Origin: Escherichia coli
GTDB lineage: Bacteria; Pseudomonadota; Gammaproteobacteria; Enterobacterales; Enterobacteriaceae
Assembly (NCBI RefSeq): GCF_041248615.1
Contig: NZ_CP158426.1
DNA: 64,000 nt
Direction: 5' to 3' (one strand)
In this document: positions 1-31,124 of the stretch, in pieces
Position numbering within the stretch: position 1 is the first letter of the stretch
How the letters are laid out: every line of letters starts with the position of its first letter
The notes under the pieces: generated by a model
What the model was told of the DNA's origin: nothing
The model's database searches: none
Seen by the model: only the letters and a program-made list of their open reading frames with translations
Program-made: the position numbers and the translations under genes

Positions 1-534
1 TTCCAGCGTATCAAGGCGTTCCTGATAAGTACGTGTGGTGATGATATTGCCGTAAAACTCCGGCGAGGTGTCGAGGTTGTGGTTGTAGTAATCCAGCCCG
101 GCGTTCGCAAGGCGCTGCGCCTGAGATTCACTCAACGTACCCAGCGTCATACACGCCTCCAGGCCCATCGCTTTTACTCCCTGCACCATTTGTTCCAGGT
201 AGGGCATATCGCGTTCGTGGGGATTCTTCCACGCCGCGCCCATGCAGAAGCGCGTCGATCCTGCCGCTTTCGCTTTGCGCGCCGACTCCAGCACCTGTTC
301 AACTTCCATCAACCGCTCGGCTTCCAGCCCGGTTTTGTAGCGCGAGCTTTGCGGGCAGTATTTGCAATCTTCCGGACAAGCTCCGGTCTTAATTGACAGC
401 AAAGTGCTGACCTGCACCTGACGTGGATCGAAATGCTGACGATGCACCTGCTGCGCTTCAAACAGCAGATCCAGCAACGGTTTTTCAAATAATTCTGTGA
501 CTTGCGACAATGTCCAGCGTGGGCGGTGAGCCAT
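1..534 (-). CDS. bioB: biotin synthase, N-terminal part (gene runs off the window start)
   Basis: Reverse translation from ATG at 534 reads [20 protein letters not shown]... with a radical-SAM CxxxCxxC motif; divergent from bioA across a palindromic operator. Confidence 0.9.
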
Positions 535-578
535 GGGGCTTCTCCAAAACGTGTTTTTTGTTGTTAATTCGGTGTAGA

Positions 579-614
579 CTCGTAAACCTAAATCTTTTCA
601 ATTTGGTTTACAAG
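579..614. promoter_or_regulatory. bio operator (BirA binding palindrome) in the bioB-bioA divergent promoter region
   Basis: Inverted repeat CTCGTAAACC...GGTTTACAAG between the divergent bioB and bioA starts. Confidence 0.6.
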
Positions 615-620
615 TCGATT

Positions 621-1910
621 ATGACAACGGACGATCTTGCCTTTGACCAACGCCATATCTGGCACCCATACACATCCATGACCTCCCCGCTACCGGTTTA
701 TCCGGTGGCGAGCGCCGAAGGTTGCGAGCTAATTTTGTCTGACGGCAGACGCCTGGTTGACGGTATGTCGTCCTGGTGGGCGGCGATCCACGGTTACAAT
801 CACCCGCAGCTTAATGCGGCTATGAAGTCGCAAATTGATGCCATGTCGCATGTGATGTTTGGCGGTATCACTCATGCGCCAGCCATTGAGCTGTGCCGCA
901 AACTGGTGGCGATGACGCCGCAACCGCTGGAATGCGTTTTTCTCGCGGACTCCGGTTCCGTAGCGGTGGAAGTGGCGATGAAAATGGCGTTGCAGTACTG
1001 GCAAGCCAAAGGCGAAGCGCGCCAGCGTTTTCTGACCTTCCGCAATGGTTATCATGGCGATACCTTTGGCGCGATGTCGGTGTGCGATCCGGATAACTCA
1101 ATGCACAGTCTGTGGAAAGGCTATCTGCCAGAAAACTTGTTTGCTCCCGCCCCGCAAAGCCGCATGGATGGTGAATGGGATGAACGCGATATGGTGGGCT
1201 TTGCCCGCCTGATGGCGGCGCATCGTCATGAAATCGCCGCAGTGATCATTGAACCGATTGTCCAGGGCGCAGGTGGGATGCGCATTTACCATCCGGAATG
1301 GTTAAAACGAATCCGCAAAATGTGCGATCGTGAAGGTATCTTGCTGATTGCCGACGAGATCGCCACCGGATTTGGTCGTACCGGTAAACTGTTTGCCTGT
1401 GAACATGCAGAAATCGCGCCGGACATTTTGTGCCTCGGTAAAGCCTTAACTGGCGGCACGATGACCCTTTCCGCCACGCTCACCACGCGCGAGGTTGCGG
1501 AAACCATCAGTAACGGCGAAGCCGGCTGCTTTATGCATGGGCCAACTTTTATGGGCAATCCGCTGGCCTGCGCAGCAGCAAACGCCAGCCTGGCGATTCT
1601 TGAATCTGGCGACTGGCAGCAGCAGGTGGCGGCTATTGAAGCGCAGCTACGCGAGCAACTTGCCCCCGCCTGTGACGCCGAAATGGTTGCCGATGTGCGC
1701 GTACTGGGGGCAATCGGTGTGGTCGAAACCACTCGTCCGGTGAATATGGCAGCGCTGCAAAAATTCTTTGTCGAACAGGGTGTCTGGATCCGGCCTTTTG
1801 GCAAACTGATTTACCTGATGCCGCCCTATATTATTCTCCCGCAACAGTTGCAGCGTCTGACCGCAGCGGTTAATCGTGCGGTGCAGGATGAAACATTTTT
1901 TTGCCAATAA
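621..1910 (+). CDS. bioA: adenosylmethionine-8-amino-7-oxononanoate aminotransferase
   Basis: ATG at 621, protein [20 protein letters not shown]..., PLP aminotransferase class III; 429 aa. Confidence 0.95.
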
Positions 1911-1968
1911 CGGGAAGTCAGCGTGAGGGTTTCTGGCTACACTTTCTGCAAACTAGAAAGGAGGGTTC

Positions 1969-2445
1969 ATGAAACTCATCAGTAATGATCTGCGCGATGG
2001 CGATAAGTTGCCGCATCGTCATGTCTTTAACGGCATGGGTTACGATGGCGATAATATTTCACCGCATCTGGCGTGGGATGATGTTCCTGCGGGAACGAAA
2101 AGTTTTGTTGTCACCTGCTTTGACCCGGACGCGCCAACCGGCTCCGGCTGGTGGCACTGGGTCGTTGTTAACTTACCCGCTGATACCCGCGTATTACCGC
2201 AAGGGTTTGGCTCTGGTCTGGTAGCAATGCCTGACGGCGTTTTGCAGACGCGTACCGACTTTGGTAAAGCCGGATACGGTGGCGCAGCGCCGCCGAAAGG
2301 CGAAACCCATCGCTACATTTTTACCGTTCACGCGCTGGATGTAGAACGTATTGATGTCGATGAAGGTGCCAGCGGCGCGATGGTCGGGTTTAACGTCCAT
2401 TTCCACTCTCTGGCAAGCGCCTCGATTACTGCGATGTTTAGTTAA
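1969..2445 (+). CDS. ybhB: PEBP/YbhB-family protein
   Basis: 158-aa ORF with RBS AGGAGG upstream; last host gene before attR. Confidence 0.9.
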   Translation: MKLISNDLRDGDKLPHRHVFNGMGYDGDNISPHLAWDDVPAGTKSFVVTCFDPDAPTGSGWWHWVVVNLPADTRVLPQGFGSGLVAMPDGVLQTRTDFGKAGYGGAAPPKGETHRYIFTVHALDVERIDVDEGASGAMVGFNVHFHSLASASITAMFS

Positions 2446-2535
2446 TCACTCTGCCAGATGGCGCTATGCCATCTGGTATCACTTAAAGGTATTAAAAACA
2501 ACTTTTTGTCTTTTTACCTTCCCGTTTCGCTCAAG

Positions 2536-2550
2536 TTAGTATAAAAAAGC
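2536..2550. other. attR core (lambda 15-bp common core, reverse orientation)
   Basis: Exact match to reverse complement of GCTTTTTTATACTAA, flanked by host sequence on the ybhB side and lambda P-arm sequence inside. Confidence 0.88.
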
Positions 2551-2694
2551 TGAACGAGAAACGTAAATGATATAAATATCAATATATTAAATTAGATTTT
2601 GCATAAAAAACAGACTACAAAATACTGTAAAACACAACATATGCAGTCACTATGAATCAACTACTTAGATGATATTAGTGACCTGTAACAGAGC
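2551..2694. promoter_or_regulatory. attP P arm (Int arm-type, IHF, Xis/Fis binding region) retained at attR
   Basis: AT-rich sequence adjacent to the core that matches my recollection of the lambda P arm. Confidence 0.6.
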
Positions 2695-2695
2695 A

Positions 2696-2737
2696 TTAGC
2701 GCAAGGTGATTTTTTGTCCTCTTGCGCTAATTTTTTG
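2696..2737 (+). terminator. tI/sib-like rho-independent terminator in the P-arm region
   Basis: Perfect 10-bp stem TTAGCGCAAG/CTTGCGCTAA with 15-nt loop followed by TTTTTT. Confidence 0.55.
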
Positions 2738-3227
2738 TCAACTCACTGGGTTAGTTGAATTTACAACCATGCTCAGTATCTCGATAAGCGCAGGGAGATG
2801 ATGCAGTGGTGGGCGGACTGGCTTGATGAAAGTGTGCTGTAATCCTCATATCCAACCTAAGAGATATGCACAATTTTGTGAATAAGATATTGAGAATTAG
2901 CAAAAGTTTTATTTTGCGTATCATCAATTCAGAATACAAAGTCACATGCTAATGTTCTGCATTGGTATCTTTTGCTTATCCATGTCTACATTATCGCCAA
3001 AATAATAGGTTTTGCCTATCAATTATTTGAATTACTTCCATGAAATTATAACGCACTTGTAATTTTTGATTATTTTTACCTCTCAAGTGTTTTGTTTCTT
3101 CTATCTCTTTGTATTTTTAGCGAAAGTATGCCATATTGCATTCTAATATAACGTGGCGTTGTTTCTGTTTAATGATTTAAATAGTTCAACATAATATTTG
3201 CTAACAAATTATATCCAAGCAAATCAT

Positions 3228-4373
3228 ATGATATTATCATTACAATATATTAGAGGAATAGCATCATTACTTGTTGTTTTATTCCACTTCAGATTCTTGC
3301 TAAATGAGCACTACTCTCAGAAAGATTTGGGTGACCTATTATTTGGGAATGGGCTGTCTGGAGTTGATATATTCTTCATATTAAGTGGATTTATCATCGT
3401 ATACTCAACAAGAAAGAAGGAAGTTAATGATACTTTCTCATTCTCAATTAGAAGAATATTTAGAATATACCCATTACTAATCACATGCTGTTGCATGTAT
3501 TACATAATAAACACTCAATTTCTAACCTATGCTACAGTTGAAAACTTTAGAACCTTACTTATTTCCATCATTCCATTAAATATAAACTGGAATGAAGGCG
3601 CTCCATTCTTTGCCTATAATCTTTTGTACCCGGCCTGGACGATAACATATGAAATTGGTTTCTATGTTTTTTTCGGGGTATCAATGTCTATTTCGCATAA
3701 ATACAGAACAATTATCTGTTCTGTTTTTATAATCATGGTGGTCTCATTTACACAATACTATGTAAATGGAAATATATCATTTTCAGGTGATGTTAGTGCA
3801 GGGTTATTTACAGATAACTGGTTATTAGGATATACAAATGTTATTACATCTCCAATGATGTATGAATTCGTTATTGGGATGTTTCTTTCTGAAATATTTA
3901 CAAACATCAACGAAAGCAAAAGTATTAAAAGGATACTTTCAAAGTATTCGCTTCAAATACTATGGATTTCATGTGGTATATCCATAATATTATTCATTAT
4001 CCAGCGACCTTATGGGCATGGATTGAATGGATTTGGGACTATGGCGATGATACTTATTGCATCATCATTAGTATATGAATACTGCAATATAACACCCAAA
4101 ATAAAAATATTTAATTTCCTTGGTGAAATATCATATTCTTTATATCTAATTCACGCCGTGATACTTGCTTTGTTCTTCTATTATAAGGCAGACCTTGCTG
4201 AAATTGGCATAACTGGTGGATTTTCTGTGTTTTTTTCCTTGGTTATTATCTCAATAACTGCATCATATCCAATATATATTCTCATTGAAAAGCCAATGAT
4301 AAATATAGGTAAACGTTTAATTGACAAGAGAAATAAGAGCATTAACAAAAAAGAAACCGAAATAACAGCGTGA
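3228..4373 (+). CDS. integral membrane acyltransferase, family 3 (putative O-antigen/polysaccharide O-acetyltransferase)
   Basis: Very hydrophobic multi-TM protein; N-terminal R/H motif YIRGIASLLVVLFH typical of acyltransferase family 3; ATG at 3228 chosen over the track's TTG at 3198; AT-rich codon usage. Confidence 0.7.
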   Translation: MILSLQYIRGIASLLVVLFHFRFLLNEHYSQKDLGDLLFGNGLSGVDIFFILSGFIIVYSTRKKEVNDTFSFSIRRIFRIYPLLITCCCMYYIINTQFLTYATVENFRTLLISIIPLNINWNEGAPFFAYNLLYPAWTITYEIGFYVFFGVSMSISHKYRTIICSVFIIMVVSFTQYYVNGNISFSGDVSAGLFTDNWLLGYTNVITSPMMYEFVIGMFLSEIFTNINESKSIKRILSKYSLQILWISCGISIILFIIQRPYGHGLNGFGTMAMILIASSLVYEYCNITPKIKIFNFLGEISYSLYLIHAVILALFFYYKADLAEIGITGGFSVFFSLVIISITASYPIYILIEKPMINIGKRLIDKRNKSINKKETEITA

Positions 4374-4410
4374 TAATGACAAAGTTAGTGCCGGGATACC
4401 CCGGCACTAT

Positions 4411-5748
4411 TTAATCTATTTCGTAAGTGACAGTGATTATCACTTCTGCATTATTACCCAAAACATTTTGATATATATTCATATTACCTGATAATGTAGT
4501 TGCTCCAGTAAGAGTTATATAACTACTATTTGCATCAACCCTTGGAAGTAAAGCGGTAACTGCTGTTGTTAAATTATTATAGTAGCCTGTACTTCCAACA
4601 TATGCAGCTTTATTGCTTGATACATATGGTAACCCTCCAATTCTGAAACCATCTCCTGACCCAATTAAAGTTATACCAAGGTGACATGTTGCCGTTATGA
4701 TATTGCCACTCCTGACATAATTTCCTTTCTGCTGATAATATGTGGCATTACCACCTACAGTCGGAATCCAAACTCCAGTTTCTATATCACCACATGACCA
4801 GTCTTCTGCTGTTGTTAGTTTTCCAGTAACAATAAATTTACTTCCACCACCAGAATTATAAGGAACAAAAATTGGATTTATTCTTGCATAAGTGTTACCG
4901 GTCTGCTCATTAAGATCATTTCTATCAATAAGAACTTGACCATTTTCGAAGTTTGAAATCTGGCAGTCTGTTACACTCCAGTCTCTTAACTTCACATCAG
5001 CATCCATGACACCAATAAGCTTACCAGCATTACCAATTTTTTCTTTATGCATATTTACATACACATTTCTTACCGTAACAGACTGAGGGAACAGATAATT
5101 AGCAGGATTAGTTTTATCACTTAAAACAGATATTACCCAAGGTCTGTATTGAGTACTTACTTCACAATAAAATCCATCAATAAGCGTTCCAGATGCCGCT
5201 GGCCCAAGTAGTATTCCACCTGTAGAGTGATGCGCACTACCTCCAATTACTCTCCCCTTAACGCAGTTAATATAGGCAAAACATCCTAAATCTTGATTGT
5301 CATAGGCTGACATAGCACAGTCTCTAACTGTTACTCGAGAATTTCCTCCGTCATAAGCTGAGCCATCAGTTTTCTTACCAACTATTGATATAAAGTTACC
5401 AATAGCAACTCGACTATAAAAAGTTTTTTTATAACACCCCTCAATTAAAATATCCCAGTTTTCAAACTGAGCATATATATCATAAATGCTGGCATTCCCA
5501 TAATCTATGAAATCACAATATCTTATTTTCGGCGTATAAACGGCACTTTTTATCTTTATACCACCTAATGCTCTCTCCCCACCTGTGAATCTAATGCCAG
5601 TAACGGTGTAATCGCCTTGATAGAAATTATCTGCGGTAGGATTATTTTCGTCAGAATCATCACCCAATATAATAGCAAATTCACTCCCTGAATAATTAAT
5701 TGTCGCCCCCTTATTTGAATATATAGTTACAGGTCTTATAAACTCCAA
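4411..5748 (-). CDS. beta-helix-like protein of unknown function (possible tailspike/depolymerase-like domain); lacks an ATG start, possibly frameshifted or truncated
   Basis: 445-codon ORF whose first codon is TTG; Gly/Asn/Thr/Val-rich repetitive sequence; in-frame upstream TGA; upstream out-of-frame ATG (5831) separated by an A7/T7 tract. Confidence 0.45.
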   Translation of the reverse strand: MEFIRPVTIYSNKGATINYSGSEFAIILGDDSDENNPTADNFYQGDYTVTGIRFTGGERALGGIKIKSAVYTPKIRYCDFIDYGNASIYDIYAQFENWDILIEGCYKKTFYSRVAIGNFISIVGKKTDGSAYDGGNSRVTVRDCAMSAYDNQDLGCFAYINCVKGRVIGGSAHHSTGGILLGPAASGTLIDGFYCEVSTQYRPWVISVLSDKTNPANYLFPQSVTVRNVYVNMHKEKIGNAGKLIGVMDADVKLRDWSVTDCQISNFENGQVLIDRNDLNEQTGNTYARINPIFVPYNSGGGSKFIVTGKLTTAEDWSCGDIETGVWIPTVGGNATYYQQKGNYVRSGNIITATCHLGITLIGSGDGFRIGGLPYVSSNKAAYVGSTGYYNNLTTAVTALLPRVDANSSYITLTGATTLSGNMNIYQNVLGNNAEVIITVTYEID

Positions 5749-6140
5749 AGAATTACTTATCAGATACTCTCCATAAGGAAAAAAATCTCAACTGGTGGTG
5801 AGTACTTTGGTCTGGAGTTTACGTAATTCATAATATTGATTACACCAACATCATAGATAATCGCCACCTTCTGGCGAGGAGCTCCTGATGCAATTAATCG
5901 CCAGGCCTACGCCCATTATTCATGGGTAAATTTTGGACGGAGCCCCCAATTCCATCCTCAATTCTCCCTCGCACTGAGGAGTAGTAAGTGCAATTATTTA
6001 AAAAATCGCAAACAGAATATTATCATTTATTCTTGCATTCTGTTAATTAAAACCACACATAAAAACGTTGATACTTGATAAGTAAGTAGAGTATTATTAA
6101 TGGTTTTAATAACGAACCTTTTAATCATGAGAAGCCTCAA

Positions 6141-7166
6141 ATGACTAGTACCAATAACATAACAAGAAAAAAAATGGATGGAGTAACAATCTTAAGATTT
6201 ATAGCTGCTTTTTATGTGTTTATTTTTCACATTAACATGAGAGTCCCCGTTAATTTTGGAGAGCTTATTAATAAAACCATTAGCAATGGCGTCATTGGCA
6301 TGAGTATTTTCTTCATGCTTTCTGGTTTTGTTTTGACTTATAATTACTATGGTTCCTTGTCAAACAATTACTTCAGGAAGCGAATAGCAAGAATATTTCC
6401 AGCCTATTTATTTTGTGGGCTTTTAACCCTCCCATTTTTGTTATCCAGCGATGCAAGCTTTTTAAAAATGATTGCAAGCATATTCTTGTTTGTTACTGGA
6501 ATGCAATCATGGATTTATCAGACCTTCGATTTTTGGAATTTTAGCGGTACCTGGTCAATATCAGTGGAATTGTTTTTTTATGCCCTGTTTCCATTTTTGA
6601 TAAAAAACATCAACAAAAACAATGTAATTTATGTTTTACTTTTTTCATATTTATCTTCAGCATTATTAATCCCATTATCTGATATAATTCAGGGACCTGT
6701 AGTTTGGTCCGTATATTACGCAACTCCAATATACAGGTTACCAGAATTTGTGGTGGGCGTCTGTATCGCAATACTTTTTTTAAATGGCTATCGTGTTAAC
6801 CATTATACATGGCTATTAAGCATTTTATTATTTCTGTATGCTACCACCCAGCAAAACAATAACTCCATGGGGGTGAACTATCTCACAATTCCTGCGATAT
6901 CAATTATGTTATTGCACCTGGCAAAAATCAACATCAAAAACAACATTGCAAACAGAGCGATCATTTACTTTGGAGATATAAGTTATTCGTTTTATTTGAT
7001 GCAATTACCTATATTATATTACCTGGATCATAATAAAAACTCATTTATTCTTAACTATGGTCTTTTTAGCTGGCTTGTACTTTTTGTTATTAATACTGCA
7101 ATGGCATCATTATCTTATCACTTTCTGGAGAAGAACGATAAAATCAGAAAAATAATTACATCCTGA
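6141..7166 (+). CDS. integral membrane acyltransferase, family 3 (second copy, divergent sequence)
   Basis: 341-aa hydrophobic protein with motif ILRFIAAFYVFIFH; AT-rich. Confidence 0.7.
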   Translation: MTSTNNITRKKMDGVTILRFIAAFYVFIFHINMRVPVNFGELINKTISNGVIGMSIFFMLSGFVLTYNYYGSLSNNYFRKRIARIFPAYLFCGLLTLPFLLSSDASFLKMIASIFLFVTGMQSWIYQTFDFWNFSGTWSISVELFFYALFPFLIKNINKNNVIYVLLFSYLSSALLIPLSDIIQGPVVWSVYYATPIYRLPEFVVGVCIAILFLNGYRVNHYTWLLSILLFLYATTQQNNNSMGVNYLTIPAISIMLLHLAKINIKNNIANRAIIYFGDISYSFYLMQLPILYYLDHNKNSFILNYGLFSWLVLFVINTAMASLSYHFLEKNDKIRKIITS

Positions 7167-7167
7167 T

Positions 7168-7193
7168 TTATTAGGGGGGTACCCCCCTAATAA
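7168..7193. terminator. 26-bp perfect palindrome, candidate bidirectional terminator between convergent genes
   Basis: TTATTAGGGGGGTACCCCCCTAATAA lies between the stop of the + strand acyltransferase (7166) and the stop of the - strand tail fiber assembly gene (7208). Confidence 0.5.
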
Positions 7194-7207
7194 TACACCA
7201 CATAATT

Positions 7208-7603
7208 TCAACGTATTATCTCTGGCCTTTCTGGCCAGGTTATTTCTGGAATTAAGGACAAATCCACTGACATTAAATTATTAACATATTCCTTCCATAA
7301 CAAAAGATTGTTCTTGTTATTTTCACTTATAATACCGAGTAACAAATCTGACTGCCAGTTCATAATTAAACCATTAGCACTATCCAGCAGACACTGTCTT
7401 TCATTCTCTGCCTCACGAAGTAATTCATCATGTGTTTTTGGCGGCTGCGTAGGTGACGAAAGCTTTCCCTTATCATAGAACCAACCAATTCTTACATTAT
7501 CGGATACAGGTATAACTAACGCATTAGTTGGTTGCCAGGCACTCTCACCATCCCATACCGCAATATTGGTAACAACACCATTTTCTATAACGGCATAGTT
7601 CAT
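7208..7603 (-). CDS. tail fiber assembly protein (Tfa-like chaperone)
   Basis: Protein MNYAVIENGVVTNIAVWDGE... resembles the Tfa family N-terminus; immediately downstream of the tail fiber gene with TGATG overlap. Confidence 0.7.
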   Translation of the reverse strand: MNYAVIENGVVTNIAVWDGESAWQPTNALVIPVSDNVRIGWFYDKGKLSSPTQPPKTHDELLREAENERQCLLDSANGLIMNWQSDLLLGIISENNKNNLLLWKEYVNNLMSVDLSLIPEITWPERPEIIR

Positions 7604-8712
7604 CACGCATACTCCCAAATGATTGCAATACCAGCCATTCCGCTACCTCCGGCACGCTGCTGCGTCGCTCCACCGTAGACACAGGCACCACCGCCTCCAC
7701 CACCATGGCCATTAGCATTAATACCTTCGCCTACAATGGCTTGTGACCCAGCCCCCGCACCAAGGATTGAATCGCCGCCAGGCCCCCCCATCGCCAGACT
7801 GCCGGAATACCGAACGCCTGGTGAGCTATAACCGCTTCCAGACCCGATAATATTTGCACCTGTAAATCCCGGCTCAGTATATGCTCCATACGGACCAACA
7901 ACCCCTGGAGCAGTTCCTTCAGCAAGAACATCCCCACCAAGGCCACCTTTGGCAATTATGGTATTGCCGAAAGAGGTTGTTCCCCCGGGAGCACCAACCG
8001 ACGCACTTGCACCAGTGCCACCATATCCGATTGTCACAGTAGTTACGGTTGGATTATCCACGCGAGCTTTAACATACTCCCCGGACATCCCCCCGCCACC
8101 ACAAGCAGCATTATTGGGATAACCGACCTGACAACCACCACCGGCCCCACCACCACCAACAATTTCAACAATAATAAATTTTGTGCCTTTTGTCGGAGTG
8201 TATGTACCTGAGCTTTTAAACACCTGACACTGTATAAGCCTCCCGGAGCCATCTCCCAAACCAAGGTATGCGAGAATGTCATCAATAGTATTTTTGCCGA
8301 TAATATCACGGCCTACCTTAGTGAGGTCGGTCTGCGCAGCCTTATCTGTGCCAGTGAAATACGGTAGCTTATTTGCACCTGTCGCCAGTCCGGCCAGAGC
8401 CGTCAACGTGGCATCAAGCGCCTGATAATCCTTACCGAATGCAGAAGACATTTTGGTAATGAATCCATTCAGGTCGCCATCATCCAATACATCCAGTCCG
8501 CTTTTGTTTGCTGTGTACTGTGCAAGTGCTGCAGCAATAAAGCTGGCCTGCCGAATAACCTTATTGACTTGCGCACTGGAGGCTTTCCCTGCTGTAAATC
8601 CGGATAAAAGCGCGGGCAACGCTTCCCATTCCTCCTGCGATATAACATTGGCATTTCGATCCGTTGCAAACGCTTTAAAGTCATTTTTCGCCATCAGAGT
8701 AATACTCCCCAT
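7603..8712 (-). CDS. tail fiber protein with glycine-rich C-terminal domain
   Basis: 369 aa; conserved fiber N-terminal region then GGxGG-rich repeats; follows baseplate genes. Confidence 0.7.
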   Translation of the reverse strand: MGSITLMAKNDFKAFATDRNANVISQEEWEALPALLSGFTAGKASSAQVNKVIRQASFIAAALAQYTANKSGLDVLDDGDLNGFITKMSSAFGKDYQALDATLTALAGLATGANKLPYFTGTDKAAQTDLTKVGRDIIGKNTIDDILAYLGLGDGSGRLIQCQVFKSSGTYTPTKGTKFIIVEIVGGGGAGGGCQVGYPNNAACGGGGMSGEYVKARVDNPTVTTVTIGYGGTGASASVGAPGGTTSFGNTIIAKGGLGGDVLAEGTAPGVVGPYGAYTEPGFTGANIIGSGSGYSSPGVRYSGSLAMGGPGGDSILGAGAGSQAIVGEGINANGHGGGGGGACVYGGATQQRAGGSGMAGIAIIWEYA

Positions 8713-9374
8713 GCTCCTACATCAAAACCACTGATGAATTCGTTATCCATATCAAAACCAAAAAATTTTGAGCCTTCCGATGGGGTTTCCACCGAAGGTG
8801 TTTCAATGCCACCCGCCCATACCCCGGCAGCTTTTACTGTGAGATACCCCTGTTTAATTGCCGCAATTAACTCACGCGATACATCTGAAATATCAGTATC
8901 AGGAAAGACCCAGACCGATATCGTCATGTCCTGGTTATCGACTATCTGCATTCGCAGTCCGGATCCTACTGTCGCCGCGTCAAGAATTGCTGGAAGCGAA
9001 TCATTCCGTCCGTCCCAGTTATTAATCGCAATCTTCGCTTTAAGGATGACACGATAAGTTTCATCGCTGAGGTACATGTATCCGGAATCAGGATCGTATG
9101 GCCCCTGCCATACACCCTGATCATATCCAAGCCCGTCGGTATCCCAGCTGAAATAGACACCTGAGATAGGCTGGCTGACAACACGGCTACGTCCGATCCA
9201 CAATCCAAGAATGTCAAGTTGCACACCAACCGCAGAGTCAATATCAAATGCAGTAATCAGCCCTCTGGTGGCAGCCGCAACATCAATAAGCGGCCGGGTC
9301 ATCAGATCAACATGTGCAAGAAATTTAGGTTTGGTGGCGTGGTAGTTCGTGATCAGTTCGGTGTATTTGCTCAT
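8694..9374 (-). CDS. baseplate/tail protein (gpI or Mu gp48-like)
   Basis: 226-aa ORF between the baseplate J-like gene and the tail fiber gene; position-based. Confidence 0.55.
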   Translation of the reverse strand: MSKYTELITNYHATKPKFLAHVDLMTRPLIDVAAATRGLITAFDIDSAVGVQLDILGLWIGRSRVVSQPISGVYFSWDTDGLGYDQGVWQGPYDPDSGYMYLSDETYRVILKAKIAINNWDGRNDSLPAILDAATVGSGLRMQIVDNQDMTISVWVFPDTDISDVSRELIAAIKQGYLTVKAAGVWAGGIETPSVETPSEGSKFFGFDMDNEFISGFDVGAWGVLL

Positions 9375-27713: not shown

Positions 27714-27782
27714 TACTTTTCCTAACACTGAGGTAATTTATTCTTGGACAGTTACTACATAACTATCAATGCAATACAAATC

Positions 27783-27932
27783 ATGCTTGCGAAGAGCAAT
27801 GGTTTTTACTTGATCGCCTGGTCTAATCAAAACCGCACAGCAAGCTCGAAAGAAGAGCTTGCTCGTATTTTGGCGTCAGAATTTAGTATCACTAATCTCG
27901 AAGCTACCAACTACGTTGCCGATCTGAACTAA
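27783..27932 (+). CDS. small hypothetical ORF antisense to the late operon
   Basis: 49 codons from ATG at 27783; no recognisable motif. Confidence 0.2.
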   Translation: MLAKSNGFYLIAWSNQNRTASSKEELARILASEFSITNLEATNYVADLN

Positions 27933-28114
27933 CTTTTTTGCGGCCATCAAATCGGAACTGCTGTAGTTGATGGCCAATCATTCCTGCTAGCTAATTCGTT
28001 ACTCTGTTGTTTATTCTGCAGGTTTTTCTGTCTACTCTGCAGGTATCTTCAACGACTCATTCCAAATGGTCAGGTGGTTATTGTGCGCTGAGATGCGCGT
28101 TGAAATTCAGATGT

Positions 28115-28140
28115 GAAAAGGCCCCGCTAAAAGCGAGGCC
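28115..28140 (-). terminator. rho-independent terminator after the unknown gene downstream of Rz
   Basis: Reverse-strand hairpin GGCCTCGC-TTTTA-GCGGGGCC followed by UUUU. Confidence 0.5.
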
Positions 28141-28157
28141 ATAAATCACTTGATATC

Positions 28158-28532
28158 TTACTGAGAACGCTGGAGTAATCCGCGCTGAGCGAGAACTAGA
28201 ACAATGTCATAAGACCCTTGCCTGTCTTTATAGCAAGTTTTATCAACTAACTCAGCTTTGCTAATTCCGGGTAAATCAAGAATCAGATTCGCAACTTCAA
28301 TTGCCCTTTGGTACAACTTACCGATCTTTTTCTCCCCATGATGTGGTTTTACATTCTTCAGATAACCGCTATCCGCCAGAGCGAGAAACGTTGCCCTTGG
28401 GCATCCCTTCTTTCTTGCCGATTCGCTTTCTGTAACCTCAGCGACAGCAGCATCCCATGCATCACGCGGGGATATTGAATTATCAGCAACCAAATAATAA
28501 GCAATTAAAGCGGCGCGCGCGTATTGAGACAT
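28158..28532 (-). CDS. hypothetical protein between the lysis cassette and terminase genes
   Basis: 124 codons from ATG at 28532 (MSQYARAALIAYYLV...); lower G+C by eye; own terminator. Confidence 0.5.
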   Translation of the reverse strand: MSQYARAALIAYYLVADNSISPRDAWDAAVAEVTESESARKKGCPRATFLALADSGYLKNVKPHHGEKKIGKLYQRAIEVANLILDLPGISKAELVDKTCYKDRQGSYDIVLVLAQRGLLQRSQ

Positions 28533-28570
28533 AATGCATCCATATACAAAAATCTTATGATAAGACTTTT

Positions 28571-29014
28571 CTAATATGAACACTGTGATCTCACATACTC
28601 TTGCAGGCCATTCAATTGGTTAGTTATGGTTTCGATGCGCTCTCTGAGAACGAAATAATCCCGTTGAGCGGTGTCAGTAAGTCTGGGGCTGGCGCCATCA
28701 TCCACGCCGGAGGCGGCGGTGGTTTTATGCATGTCCGGACAGACTGCTTTGACGCGCAGCCACTTACGACCAGCAGAAACATCAGCACGAATACTTTCGA
28801 TAGTCGCGTTAGCATCAGCAAGCTCCTTTGTGTATCTGGCGTCGAGTTCTGCTACATCACGTTGACGCTTCTGCATGTCAGCGATGATGTACGTGGCTTT
28901 ATCGCGCTGTTCTTTATAGGTAATGGCGTTATCACGGTAATGATTAACAGCCCATGACAGACAGACGATGATGCAGATAACCAGAGCGGAGATAATCGCG
29001 GTTAACCTGCTCAT
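28571..29014 (-). CDS. Rz: i-spanin Rz
   Basis: N-terminal TM segment then coiled-coil periplasmic domain; overlaps endolysin stop. Confidence 0.75.
28624..28821 (-). CDS. Rz1: o-spanin Rz1 lipoprotein, nested in the +1 frame of Rz
   Basis: Lipobox LLVVSGC and proline-rich mature region [11 protein letters not shown]. Confidence 0.7.
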
Positions 29015-29508
29015 TGCTGCCCCCACAAACAGACTTCACGCTCAATCTCACGGCGAGTCATCAGCCCTTTCCATTGCTTACCGCCAGCGTATGTCCAGCG
29101 ACGTAGCTGGTCACATGCGCCTTTGATATCGCCCTGGTTTATTTTGCGAAGAAGCGTCGATGTTCTGAAATTGCCAGCACCCACGTTGTAGACGAACGAG
29201 TAAAGAGCGCCGCGCGTTGTTTCCGGTATATCGACTTTGATGTACGGGTTAATTTGTCTGGCGACCGTGGCAAGGTCTTTATTCAGGAGGGCTTTGCATT
29301 CTGCTTCGGTATACGTTTTACCGGGAATGATGTCTTTTCCTGTATGCCCGTGACATACAGTCCATACGCCAACGATATCTTTGTATGGTATGTAGCTGAC
29401 ACCTTCCAGACCATCGTTACCACCTGGACCAGTGATTAACACTGATGCTATAGCAATAGCCCCGCCACCAATAGCAGCTGCAACAGCTTTTCGTAATGAT
29501 GGAGGCAT
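29011..29508 (-). CDS. R: SAR endolysin (lysozyme), phage 21 R-like
   Basis: 165 aa; N-terminal Gly/Ala-rich signal-anchor-release segment [20 protein letters not shown] then lysozyme domain. Confidence 0.85.
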
Positions 29509-29723
29509 TATTCACCTCTCGCAGCCTTTCTTCTGTCTTCTCTGATTTTGAAGTACAGATTTGTCAGATAAGTCAAAAAGCCCAGAACTAGACTTCCCAG
29601 CACACCAATTGCAGCCCACTGTGACGGACTGACCTGATCCAACCACTGTAAAAACCAGTATCCCGCACTACCAGCGGATGTTCCGTAGGCAATGCCAGTA
29701 GAGATTTTGTCCATTGATTTCAT
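29508..29723 (-). CDS. S: pinholin/antiholin S with dual start, phage 21 S-like
   Basis: 71 aa [29 protein letters not shown]... with two TM segments and Met1/Met4 dual-start motif. Confidence 0.85.
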
Positions 29724-29841
29724 AGCAACGCCTCCGCAAGTAACGGATTGCGTAGTTCTTATATTGGGAAGGGGAAAAAAGAAGGCCGCGGCATAACTAT
29801 CACTGATGAGTTCAGGATAGCCAGTGGCTACGGCTCAGTTA

Positions 29842-29917
29842 TGGTGCTGGTTAACGGACTTGAACCGCTACCCATTCGCTTACAAGGCGACTGCTCTACC
29901 ATTGGAGCTAAACCAGC
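29842..29917 (-). tRNA. tRNA-like gene, anticodon UGU (Thr) by manual folding
   Basis: 76-nt cloverleaf: acceptor GCTGGTT/AACCAGC, D arm GCTC-CAATGGTA-GAGC, anticodon loop CTTGTAA (U33, A37), T arm AGCGG-TTCAAGT-CCGTT, 3' ACCA; one anticodon-stem mismatch. Confidence 0.55.
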
Positions 29918-29922
29918 ATGTT

Positions 29923-29997
29923 TGGCGGGACAGCGTGGACTCGAACCACGATAAGAAGGTTAACAGCCTTCCGTAATGACCTTTATACGACTGACCC
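29923..29997 (-). tRNA. tRNA-like gene, anticodon GUU (Asn), possibly degenerate
   Basis: Anticodon arm GAAGG-CTGTTAA-CCTTC and T arm CGTGG-TTCGAGT-CCACG are perfect; acceptor stem has one mismatch and the D stem is short. Confidence 0.45.
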
Positions 29998-30001
29998 AAA
30001 T

Positions 30002-30043
30002 AAAAAAAGCCACCGTTGCAACTTAAGAGTCACTAACGGCAGC
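30002..30043 (-). terminator. tR'-like terminator downstream of Q
   Basis: Reverse-strand hairpin followed by U7 just upstream of the tRNA genes. Confidence 0.45.
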
Positions 30044-30088
30044 TTATGCCAATAGTGTTGCTCATTTGCTCAATGATGTCAACACGTT

Positions 30089-30577
30089 CTATGCTACATG
30101 TTTAATTTTCTCTACACGTTTCCGATTTTTAAACGCACTATCCAGAACCGGGTAAATCATAAACAACGAGGCATTAAGGATTTCGTCAACTTCCCGTCGA
30201 CAGGTTGCGAGCGATGGTTTTTGAATGCGCCCGCCGCCACGGCATAACATCTTGCGAGGTCTTGCGACGCGATGATAGTAAGATGCAATGGCGTGCTTGG
30301 AAGAGCCATGAGCGTAGTAGCTGAGGAGGATTCCAAAGGCTTTCTTGTCAATGTACATGACGGAATCGACGACCTGAGAAATCAACATTCCATCATCATC
30401 ATTACACATTGGCCTTGTCATAACTCTTCCCGGCTCTACGCTCTCCATGAACTTCGCTATTACGCTGCTCATGCGCTTTTCCAGACGACCTGAATAAACC
30501 CATGCGCCCCACAGTTCAAGCCAGCCATTCAGCCACTCATGCTGTTCTTTGGTGAGGTTTAGTTCTCTTATGCCCAC
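30089..30577 (-). CDS. Q: late gene antiterminator Q (non-lambda type)
   Basis: 162 aa, GTG start at 30577; Cys-containing C-terminal region; occupies the Q position between nin genes and the lysis cassette. Confidence 0.65.
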
Positions 30578-31124
30578 GCGCCTTCTCCCTGTACCTGAAT
30601 CAATGTGAGATTTCCGCAGAACACTGCCCCAGTATCGATATACATCTGGTTGGCAAATTTGAGTGGTTTCACTGCTGGCGTATGACCAAAGATAAACGTG
30701 TCCGCGCCTTTAATTTCTTTAACGATCCCGTCTTGTGAGTTGCTGATTCGTTCGCGGTTCCAGATTACCTGCTGATGATCAACTGGCTTTCCAAATTCGT
30801 ATTCGTCACAAGGATAATCGGCGTGGCAGATGACATATTTTTTACCTTTGCTCACCAGTTCGATGATTAACGGAAGTTCTTCTGCTTTATGGGCAAGAGC
30901 TTTAGCCAGAATTTCTTTGTCGTAATCGAGATTAAAGAACCAGCCACCGCCATTAAGCAGCCAGTGATTAACGTTTCCACGCTCTGATAAGCCATCAATC
31001 ATCATTTGTTGTCGAATCCAATCGTATCCAGTTTGTTCATAAGGTTCGTGTAGCATCCGTGCAGATCGCCAACCACCCAAATATTTCGGTATTTGCTGCC
31101 ATCAATTCTTTCGTAGATATTCAT
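30568..31124 (-). pseudogene. ninI: ninI (lambda Ser/Thr phosphatase) disrupted by an internal deletion and frameshift
   Basis: N-terminal 40 codons ([40 protein letters not shown]) end at TGA 31002..31004; the C-terminal 160 aa ([15 protein letters not shown]...) lie in another frame; the GDxVDRG and GNHE motif region is absent. Confidence 0.6.

Follow-up and report, generated by a model that had tools for sequence, protein, structure and literature searches.

The DNA analysed here, called the window in the following, is a stretch of 64,000 nt from Escherichia coli; the lysis cassette under study occupies positions 28571-29723. It consists of the four overlapping frames S, R, Rz and Rz1, all located on the minus strand (Table 1). 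The S start at 29723 and the Rz stop at 28571 coincide exactly with the ends of the interval named in the original prediction, which had been made from the sequence. The ATG of R shares one base with the stop codon of S (TAATG), and the ATG of Rz overlaps the stop codon of R as ATGA. For two of the genes, the list of open reading frames offers an alternative start: in the case of Rz this is a GTG at 29026, four codons upstream and in frame, and in the case of Rz1 a TTG two codons upstream of the ATG. The ATG codons were preferred for both genes, because they have the better ribosome-binding sites and agree with the relatives; the GTG is probably not the real start of Rz. The gene overlaps, the ribosome-binding sites and the lengths of the reading frames are undamaged and the same as in the relatives. 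All four proteins were assigned to the lysis category of PHROGs, and their Pfam matches all exceed the curated gathering cut-offs; this four-gene pattern is far above chance. Among the NCBIfam models, none matched S, Rz, Rz1 or the DUF6979 protein encoded downstream, and R obtained sub-threshold matches to lysozyme domains only. The cassette is the only one for lysis within the window.

Table 1. Features of the lysis cassette and of its flanks (positions refer to the window).
Feature	Position	Strand	Description
Q antiterminator gene, phage 21 type (Q21)	30089..30577	minus	99.4% protein and 98.2% nt identity to phage 21 Q; PF06530, E=8.8e-25
Late promoter unit	29998..30082	minus	identity to elements annotated in phage 21 OL657228
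pR' -35	30082..30077	minus	as in phage 21
Q-binding element (QBE), two-part	30074..30059	minus	as in phage 21
pR' -10	30059..30054	minus	as in phage 21
Transcription start	30047	minus	as in phage 21
Sigma-dependent pause element	30046..30040	minus	as in phage 21
Terminator tR'	30045..29998	minus	as in phage 21
tRNA-Asn (GTT)	29923..29997	minus	ARAGORN; 100% identical to phage 21 tRNA-Asn
tRNA-Thr (TGT)	29842..29917	minus	ARAGORN; 100% identical to phage 21 tRNA-Thr
S	29723..29508	minus	71 aa, begins MKSMDK; class II holin with dual start
R	29508..29011	minus	165 aa; SAR (signal-anchor-release) endolysin, GH24 lysozyme
Rz	29014..28571	minus	147 aa from ATG; i-spanin
Mosaic joint inside Rz	28897..28915	minus	codons ~34-40, Rz nt ~100-118
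Rz1	28815..28624	minus	63 aa; o-spanin lipoprotein, wholly within Rz, +1 frame
DUF6979 gene	28532..28158	minus (late strand)	124 aa, downstream of Rz; next gene: Terminase_2 small subunit

S matched the family PF04971 (Bacteriophage P21 holin S) with 122.2 bits (cut-off 26, E=8.6e-36). All of its residues (71/71, 100%) are identical to those of phage 21 S21-71, and the same number was found for S of the phage SfI. At the codon level, the comparison with phage 21 gave 14 synonymous and no non-synonymous differences, which argues for strong purifying selection. A ribosome-binding site (GGAGG) is located 6 nt upstream of the gene, and two in-frame starts are present: the ATG at 29723 belongs to the antipinholin S71 and the ATG of codon 4, at 29714, to the pinholin S68. 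Of the N-terminal residues M1-K2-S3-M4, the extra basic Lys2 occurs in S71 only, in agreement with the annotation of phage 21. The dual start giving S21-68 and S21-71 is known from phage 21, where S21-68 forms heptameric pinholes of ~2 nm (PMC9636201); these holes are too small to release the endolysin R of lambda (PMC6116005). RNA folding at the dual start proposed the same stem-loop for the window and phage 21; over the ribosome-binding site of S, the predicted stem-loop did not stand out from shuffled controls (z = -0.96 for the window, -1.11 for phage 21).

S had been described in the original prediction as a 71-aa holin with two transmembrane domains (TMDs) and the MKSMDK dual-start motif. 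Hydropathy reveals TMD2 alone (KD19 1.72, residues 36-54). The segment of residues 8-27 carries no charge and consists to 60% of Gly, Ala, Ser or Thr; here KD19 is at most 0.64 (residues 5-30), which is below a TMD call based on hydropathy alone. The C-terminal tail has a net charge of +3. We accept the two-TMD topology on the grounds of the 100% identity to S21 and not of plain hydropathy, and on this basis the description holds. The weak hydrophobicity of residues 8-27 is what would be expected of a SAR-like TMD1 of the S21 type: for S21, a weakly hydrophobic first TMD has been documented experimentally (topology according to reviews). Given a sequence identical to S21, S would be predicted to form pinholes that depolarise the membrane and do not release a soluble endolysin.

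R belongs to the phage lysozyme family PF00959 (E=5.8e-46) and shares 159 of 165 residues (96.4%) with R21 of phage 21 and 160 of 165 (97.0%) with R of SfI. The six substitutions relative to R21 (S29G, M61I, L62P, K68E, M98T, I159V) affect neither a catalytic residue nor residues 1-28, which are identical in both proteins. At the codon level, 15 synonymous and 6 non-synonymous differences from phage 21 were counted; this pattern of codon changes in S and R is typical of functional genes under purifying selection. The triad E-X8-D-X5-T, the lysozyme motif of SAR endolysins (PMC9239132), is present as E35, D44 and T50. As had been claimed, the N-terminus carries a Gly/Ala-rich SAR segment: R6 and K7 are followed by 20 residues (8-27), 65% of which are Gly, Ala, Ser or Thr. 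Cysteines occur at positions 52, 71, 132 and 160 only, and the SAR segment contains none.

Structural data are in line with this assignment. Matches over the full length of R (residues 1-165) were obtained with 4ZPU (E=2.8e-109), 3HDE (E=2e-108) and 3HDF (E=2.9e-92). 3HDE and 3HDF are crystal structures of R21, and the best match, 4ZPU, is RrrD of DLP12. The DLP12 genes essD-rrrD-rzpD/rzoD of E. coli K-12 represent the same holin and SAR-endolysin families, and PGAP names the R protein of the window 'lysozyme RrrD'. DLP12 is a cryptic, defective prophage remnant. The SAR helices are visible in 3HDE and 4ZPU (PMC6024848), and R fits the mode of R21, in which the SAR helix is built into the folded, active enzyme and the SAR domain is free of cysteine. 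The SAR domain of R21 is uncleaved (PMC6116005), and the features of SAR endolysins as well as their dependence on the proton motive force (PMF) have been described (PMC9239132). Judged by these experiments on R21 (PMC6116005, PMC9239132), R would be exported by Sec without cleavage, and its release and activation would depend on the PMF.

A useful point of reference is Lyz of phage P1, the structures of which (1XJT, 1XJU) matched R weakly (E about 1e-9). P1 Lyz is activated by a disulfide isomerisation that involves a cysteine of the SAR domain; R resembles R21 and differs from P1 Lyz in lacking such a cysteine. The principle is the same: P1 Lyz, the first SAR endolysin, is exported by Sec, tethered to the membrane and released upon depolarisation (PMC9239132, PMC6116005), and its SAR domain is modified by the Dsb system (PMC9239132).

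The outcome that would have spoken against the original prediction is a cassette of the lambda type, i.e. a large-hole holin with three TMDs (S105/S107) combined with a soluble, cytoplasmic transglycosylase R. Such a reading could draw on the spanins, as Rz and Rz1 are homologous to those of lambda (69% and 62% identity), and on the location of the prophage at the lambda attB site. However, lambda S (class I, three TMDs) and lambda R (a soluble transglycosylase) are unrelated to S and R of the window: global alignments of lambda S107 and R with these proteins scored just 10 and 8, and the high identity of both to the phage 21 proteins as well as the membership of S in PF04971 and of R in a GH24 lysozyme family, rather than in the family of the lambda transglycosylase, point the other way. 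A lambda-type cassette at this locus can practically be dismissed. Lambda-type S or R genes, or a second lysis cassette elsewhere in the window, were ruled out as well, as tblastn searches with lambda S and R over all six frames of the 64 kb gave chance-level matches (best E 2.3 and 0.14, respectively).

Rz (PF03245, E=6.5e-40) consists of an N-terminal TMD (residues ~4-24; KD19 2.63 for residues 5-23) and a periplasmic domain. Rz1 (PF06085, E=1.1e-16; PHROG 3198, E=3.3e-27) is read in the +1 frame of Rz ((29014-28815) mod 3 = 1), and all characteristics attributed to it beforehand, namely the VSGC lipobox, the polyproline tract and the embedding in the +1 frame, were found. The lipobox contains Cys20 and agrees with the o-spanin consensus [LVI][ASTVI][GAS]C (PMC6139136); the mature protein comprises 44 aa with 9 prolines, including PPPPP, and contains Cys29. 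Cys92 and Cys145 of Rz align with Cys99 and Cys152 of lambda Rz, and Cys29 of Rz1 with C29 of lambda Rz1. These features are those of two-component spanins, for which the architecture, the penta-proline tract and the required intermolecular disulfides have been reported (PMC6139136). Lambda Rz/Rz1 likewise combine the +1 embedding, the TMD, the lipoprotein signal, the penta-proline tract and the three conserved cysteines.

One might nevertheless regard Rz1 as a chance frame inside Rz and ascribe the disruption of the outer membrane to Rz alone or to another gene, as Rz1 is left without annotation both by PGAP in identical RefSeq E. coli chromosomes and in the RefSeq record of SfI. Embedded genes are a known weak spot of automated annotation pipelines, and the missing entries reflect this. 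The family matches, the canonical lipobox, the penta-proline tract, the conserved Cys29 and a ribosome-binding site of its own (AAGGAG) leave a chance frame next to no credibility. Furthermore, relative to the length of Rz, Rz1 extends from 0.45 to 0.88, the usual place of embedded o-spanins (PMC6139136), and SfI Rz contains a nearly identical +1 frame; the o-spanin of SfI has been assigned to the lambda family (PMC6139136).

For the spanins, the alignment with phage 21 gave a different picture than for S and R. The original prediction had proposed alignment with all four phage 21 proteins: this expectation was borne out for S and R, whereas Rz and Rz1 share only 67.8% and 61% of their residues with the phage 21 proteins. 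Compared with phage 21, Rz has lost seven residues and differs at its C-terminus, and Rz1 has 3 additional residues. With lambda, the identity is 69.2% for Rz and ~62% for Rz1; with SfI, it rises to 93.9% for Rz. By sequence, the spanins of the window are thus a third allele of the SfI type (94%) and not the allele of phage 21. Note that Rz/Rz1 cannot distinguish a '21-type' from a 'lambda-type' cassette, because the spanins of phage 21 and lambda are themselves nearly identical: 96% and 98% identity have been published for Rz and Rz1 (PMC12642591), and in the alignment made here they were almost identical, too. The Rz1 of SfI deviates in one respect, as it has a serine where Rz1 of the window has Cys29.

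The transition between both types of sequence lies within Rz, just past the membrane anchor. Few positions differ from phage 21 up to nt 99 of Rz, and mismatches run continuously from nt 118 onwards; across this joint, the sliding identity to phage 21 falls from 59/60 to about 40/60, whereas the identity to SfI stays at 57-59/60. Upstream of the joint the sequence resembles phage 21 and lambda, and over the first ~33 codons Rz hardly differs from lambda Rz; downstream it resembles SfI. Rz is a chimera of a TMD of the phage 21/lambda type and a periplasmic domain of the SfI type. As the joint separates the anchor from the periplasmic domain, the latter and the embedded Rz1 were inherited together. 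The same chimera exists in the viable phage SfI; therefore the joint is old and is borne by a viable phage. It is conceivable, if unlikely, that the joint at codons ~34-40 is a recurrent, selected module boundary for the swapping of lambdoid spanins; the co-inherited gene for the uncharacterised, cytoplasmic DUF6979 protein, which replaces bor, might then have an undescribed role late in infection.

The region upstream of S corresponds to the late-control region of phage 21. pR', QBE, transcription start, pause element and tR' are base-for-base identical to those of OL657228 and show the same spacing. A generic scan of positions 28000-30200 for sigma-70 promoters and terminators missed both pR' and tR' on the minus strand; it was discounted, because both are identical to elements of phage 21 that have been mapped experimentally. 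The two tRNA genes between tR' and S are also present in SfI (PMC3636060).

Downstream of Rz, the DUF6979 gene occupies the position of bor, which phage 21 and lambda encode on the opposite strand; a tblastn search for Bor over the 64-kb window gave a chance-level match only (best E 2.2). For the DUF6979 protein, PADLOC gave no match, sequence matches in the PDB were at chance level (E about 0.08), a literature search found no papers, and the AlphaFold model computed from the single sequence was poor (mean pLDDT 46.8).

In order to assess the relationship along the locus, phage 21 (OL657228), SfI (NC_027339) and lambda (NC_001416) were aligned. The nucleotide identity to phage 21 is 98% for Q, 99% for the leader, 100% for both tRNA genes, 93% for S and 96% for R; it decreases to ~71% from the joint through the Rz/Rz1 overlap and to 53% in the tail of Rz. 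The phage 21 cassette (OL657228.1, 39866-41036) has the same gene order and overlaps, an S gene with dual start and an R protein with SAR domain and triad, and the preceding unit Q21-pR'-QBE-tR'-tRNA-Asn-tRNA-Thr is likewise the same (98-100% nt). In contrast to phage 21, the window lacks bor and has the DUF6979 gene on the late strand instead. The best overall phage match is SfI, a serotype-converting phage of Shigella flexneri (NC_027339 / JX509734; PMC3636060), with 94.5-95.3% nucleotide identity from Q to DUF6979; by segment, the values are 95-98% across Rz and 88% across the gene that follows. Beyond DUF6979 both differ: in SfI an HNH endonuclease, cos and structural genes of the SfV/e14 type follow and the phage integrates at thrW, whereas in the window the gene for a Terminase_2 small subunit and structural genes of the vB_EcoM-606R2/SEN34 type follow and the site is ybhC/ybhB.

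The window is 100% identical to E. coli NRZ14408 at positions 1-9332 and 99.88% identical at 8100-50103; in this strain, a prophage of ~42 kb is integrated between ybhC and ybhB, i.e. at the lambda attB site. Its packaging/head region is unlike that of phage 21, lambda or SfI and shows 97.8% identity to phages of the vB_EcoM-606R2 type and about 85% to Salmonella phage SEN34 (myoviruses); the early region shows patchy similarity to JEP4, HK629 and P22-like phages. The mosaic origin suggested previously is supported by these comparisons: the cassette documents a modular ancestry, with phage 21-type late control, tRNA genes, holin and endolysin (93-100% nt), SfI-type sequence in the periplasmic part of Rz, in Rz1 and in the next gene, and virion genes of the SEN34/606R2 type. 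With respect to distribution, three RefSeq E. coli chromosomes contain a block of 2 kb with the cassette unchanged (100% identity); among 5426 complete E. coli genomes, 143 cover at least 80% of this block.

The state of the prophage bears on the question of whether the cassette is a silent relic, i.e. intact in sequence and devoid of a role in a phage life cycle, as in defective prophages such as DLP12 with its essD-rrrD-rzpD genes. In a RefSeq record of ~99.9% identity, frameshifts are annotated in ren and in a Ser/Thr phosphatase gene, and one CDS of the tail region is marked as partial; in the window itself, the phosphatase frame lacks its 5' end. Moreover, some match of the P21 type occurs in 4991 of the 5426 complete E. 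coli genomes, and many of these cassettes reside in cryptic prophages. However, ren and the phosphatase of the nin region are dispensable in lambda, and the annotation shows a complete-looking prophage that extends from int/xis via immunity, replication, terminase, portal, head and tail genes to the baseplate. The four lysis frames, their overlaps and ribosome-binding sites, Q and the pR'/QBE/tR' unit are all intact, and the changes in S relative to phage 21 are exclusively synonymous. We thus consider a silent relic quite unlikely.

We are highly confident that a mosaic prophage of the lambdoid type carries its lysis cassette here, within the late operon, and that this cassette would act by the pathway of phage 21, i.e. 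by pinholin, SAR endolysin and two-component spanin. This mechanism was assigned because S and R are 100% and 96.4% identical to the proteins on which it was worked out, and no feature of the sequence speaks against it. The following course of events can be proposed on the basis of this identity and of the literature (PMC9636201, PMC6116005, PMC9239132, PMC12642591, PMC6139136). The Q21-type antiterminator would load at the QBE of pR', allowing RNA polymerase to continue past tR' and across both tRNA genes to S-R-Rz/Rz1. From the dual start that is seen in the sequence, S would be translated into the antipinholin S71, with its extra Lys2, and the pinholin S68. Sec would export R, whose Gly/Ala-rich SAR domain, being uncleaved, would anchor it in the inner membrane in an inactive state. 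At an allele-specific time, TMD1 of S68 would exit the bilayer and TMD2 would oligomerise, such that heptameric pinholes of ~2 nm arise and the PMF collapses. Upon this collapse, the SAR domain of R would be released, and R would refold to the active muramidase and degrade the murein. Finally, Rz in the inner membrane and the outer-membrane lipoprotein Rz1, dimerised covalently via their periplasmic cysteines, would fuse both membranes.

The cassette is an intact, ordinary, textbook system of the phage 21 type and as such already known: its exact sequence is contained in public genomes, and its closest phage relative, SfI, has been published. Beyond a correct annotation, the significance is small; the sequence points to lysis of the prophage host by the pinholin/SAR-endolysin route. 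The practical use lies in the addition of Rz1 to the RefSeq annotations mentioned above. Together with the unannotated Rz1, the uncharacterised DUF6979 gene beside the cassette is a useful by-product of the analysis.

The pinholin gene S differs from its counterparts in phage 21 (OL657228) by 14 codons and in SfI, the Shigella flexneri phage that is the nearest phage relative of the cassette (NC_027339), by 12. As each of these differences is synonymous, the S protein is invariant despite a DNA divergence of about 7%. Position 29 of Rz1 is a cysteine in the window (RTCIK), whereas the +1 frame of the SfI Rz gene encodes a serine there (RTSIK); the C-terminal cysteine of Rz is retained in both. 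In lambda, spanin function requires at least one disulfide, formed by either Rz C152 or Rz1 C29 (PMC6139136), so SfI would depend on the Rz disulfide. The embedded Rz1 gene is missing from the PGAP annotation of a 100% identical RefSeq E. coli chromosome (stretch L004) and likewise from the SfI RefSeq record (stretch L002); only the enclosing gene is named there, as 'lysis protein' or 'Rz-like spanin' (L004 21087-21530; L002 2887-3330).

Features of the prophage and of the surroundings of its lysis cassette
Feature	Position	Strand	Remarks
Entire prophage	about 2450-44940		~42 kb; between ybhB (1969-2445) and ybhC
Acyltransferase-family gene	3228-4373	+	near tail-fibre end, adjoining ybhB
Acyltransferase-family gene	6141-7166	+	near tail-fibre end, adjoining ybhB
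Stretch between DUF6979 and small terminase genes	27729-28157		~430 bp
DUF6979 / PHROG 5039 gene	28158-28532	-	late strand; 124 aa; function unassigned
Rz1	28624-28815	-	embedded o-spanin
Rz1 codon 29	28729-28731	-	Cys
S	29508-29723	-	pinholin
Ser/Thr phosphatase (NinI-like) gene	30568-31124	-	immediately upstream of Q

The DUF6979 gene begins 38 bp beyond the Rz stop codon. In phage 21 and in lambda this site is occupied by bor, encoded on the opposite strand. SfI, like the window, possesses the DUF6979 gene (gp63, 87.6% nucleotide identity). Neither a transmembrane domain nor a signal peptide was found in the protein; searches of PADLOC with the gene and of the PDB with the protein gave no match and no significant match, respectively, and a literature search for DUF6979 yielded nothing. 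The single-sequence AF2 model (pLDDT 46.8) was too poor for use. The stretch which follows contains no convincing ORF; in SfI, a gene for an HNH endonuclease and the cos site are found at the equivalent position.

Upstream of the antiterminator gene Q, the 5' end of the phosphatase gene is not intact: the ORF of 170 residues starts with TTG and lies behind a 40-bp gap following ninG. In a near-identical RefSeq record, this gene and ren are both annotated as frameshifted; in phage 21 and SfI its place is taken by no more than a NinH fragment.

The prophage occupies the lambda attB locus next to the bio operon. Its genes for the virion belong to the vB_EcoM-606R2 / SEN34 myovirus type, with nucleotide identities of 97.8% and 85%. 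It thus joins integration at the lambda site with early genes like those of P22 and HK phages, late control of the phage 21 type and spanins of the SfI type. The two acyltransferase genes, whose coordinates were transferred from the annotation of the 100% identical E. coli chromosome NRZ14408, could be morons for O-acetylation of surface polysaccharides, like the serotype-converting genes of Shigella phages.
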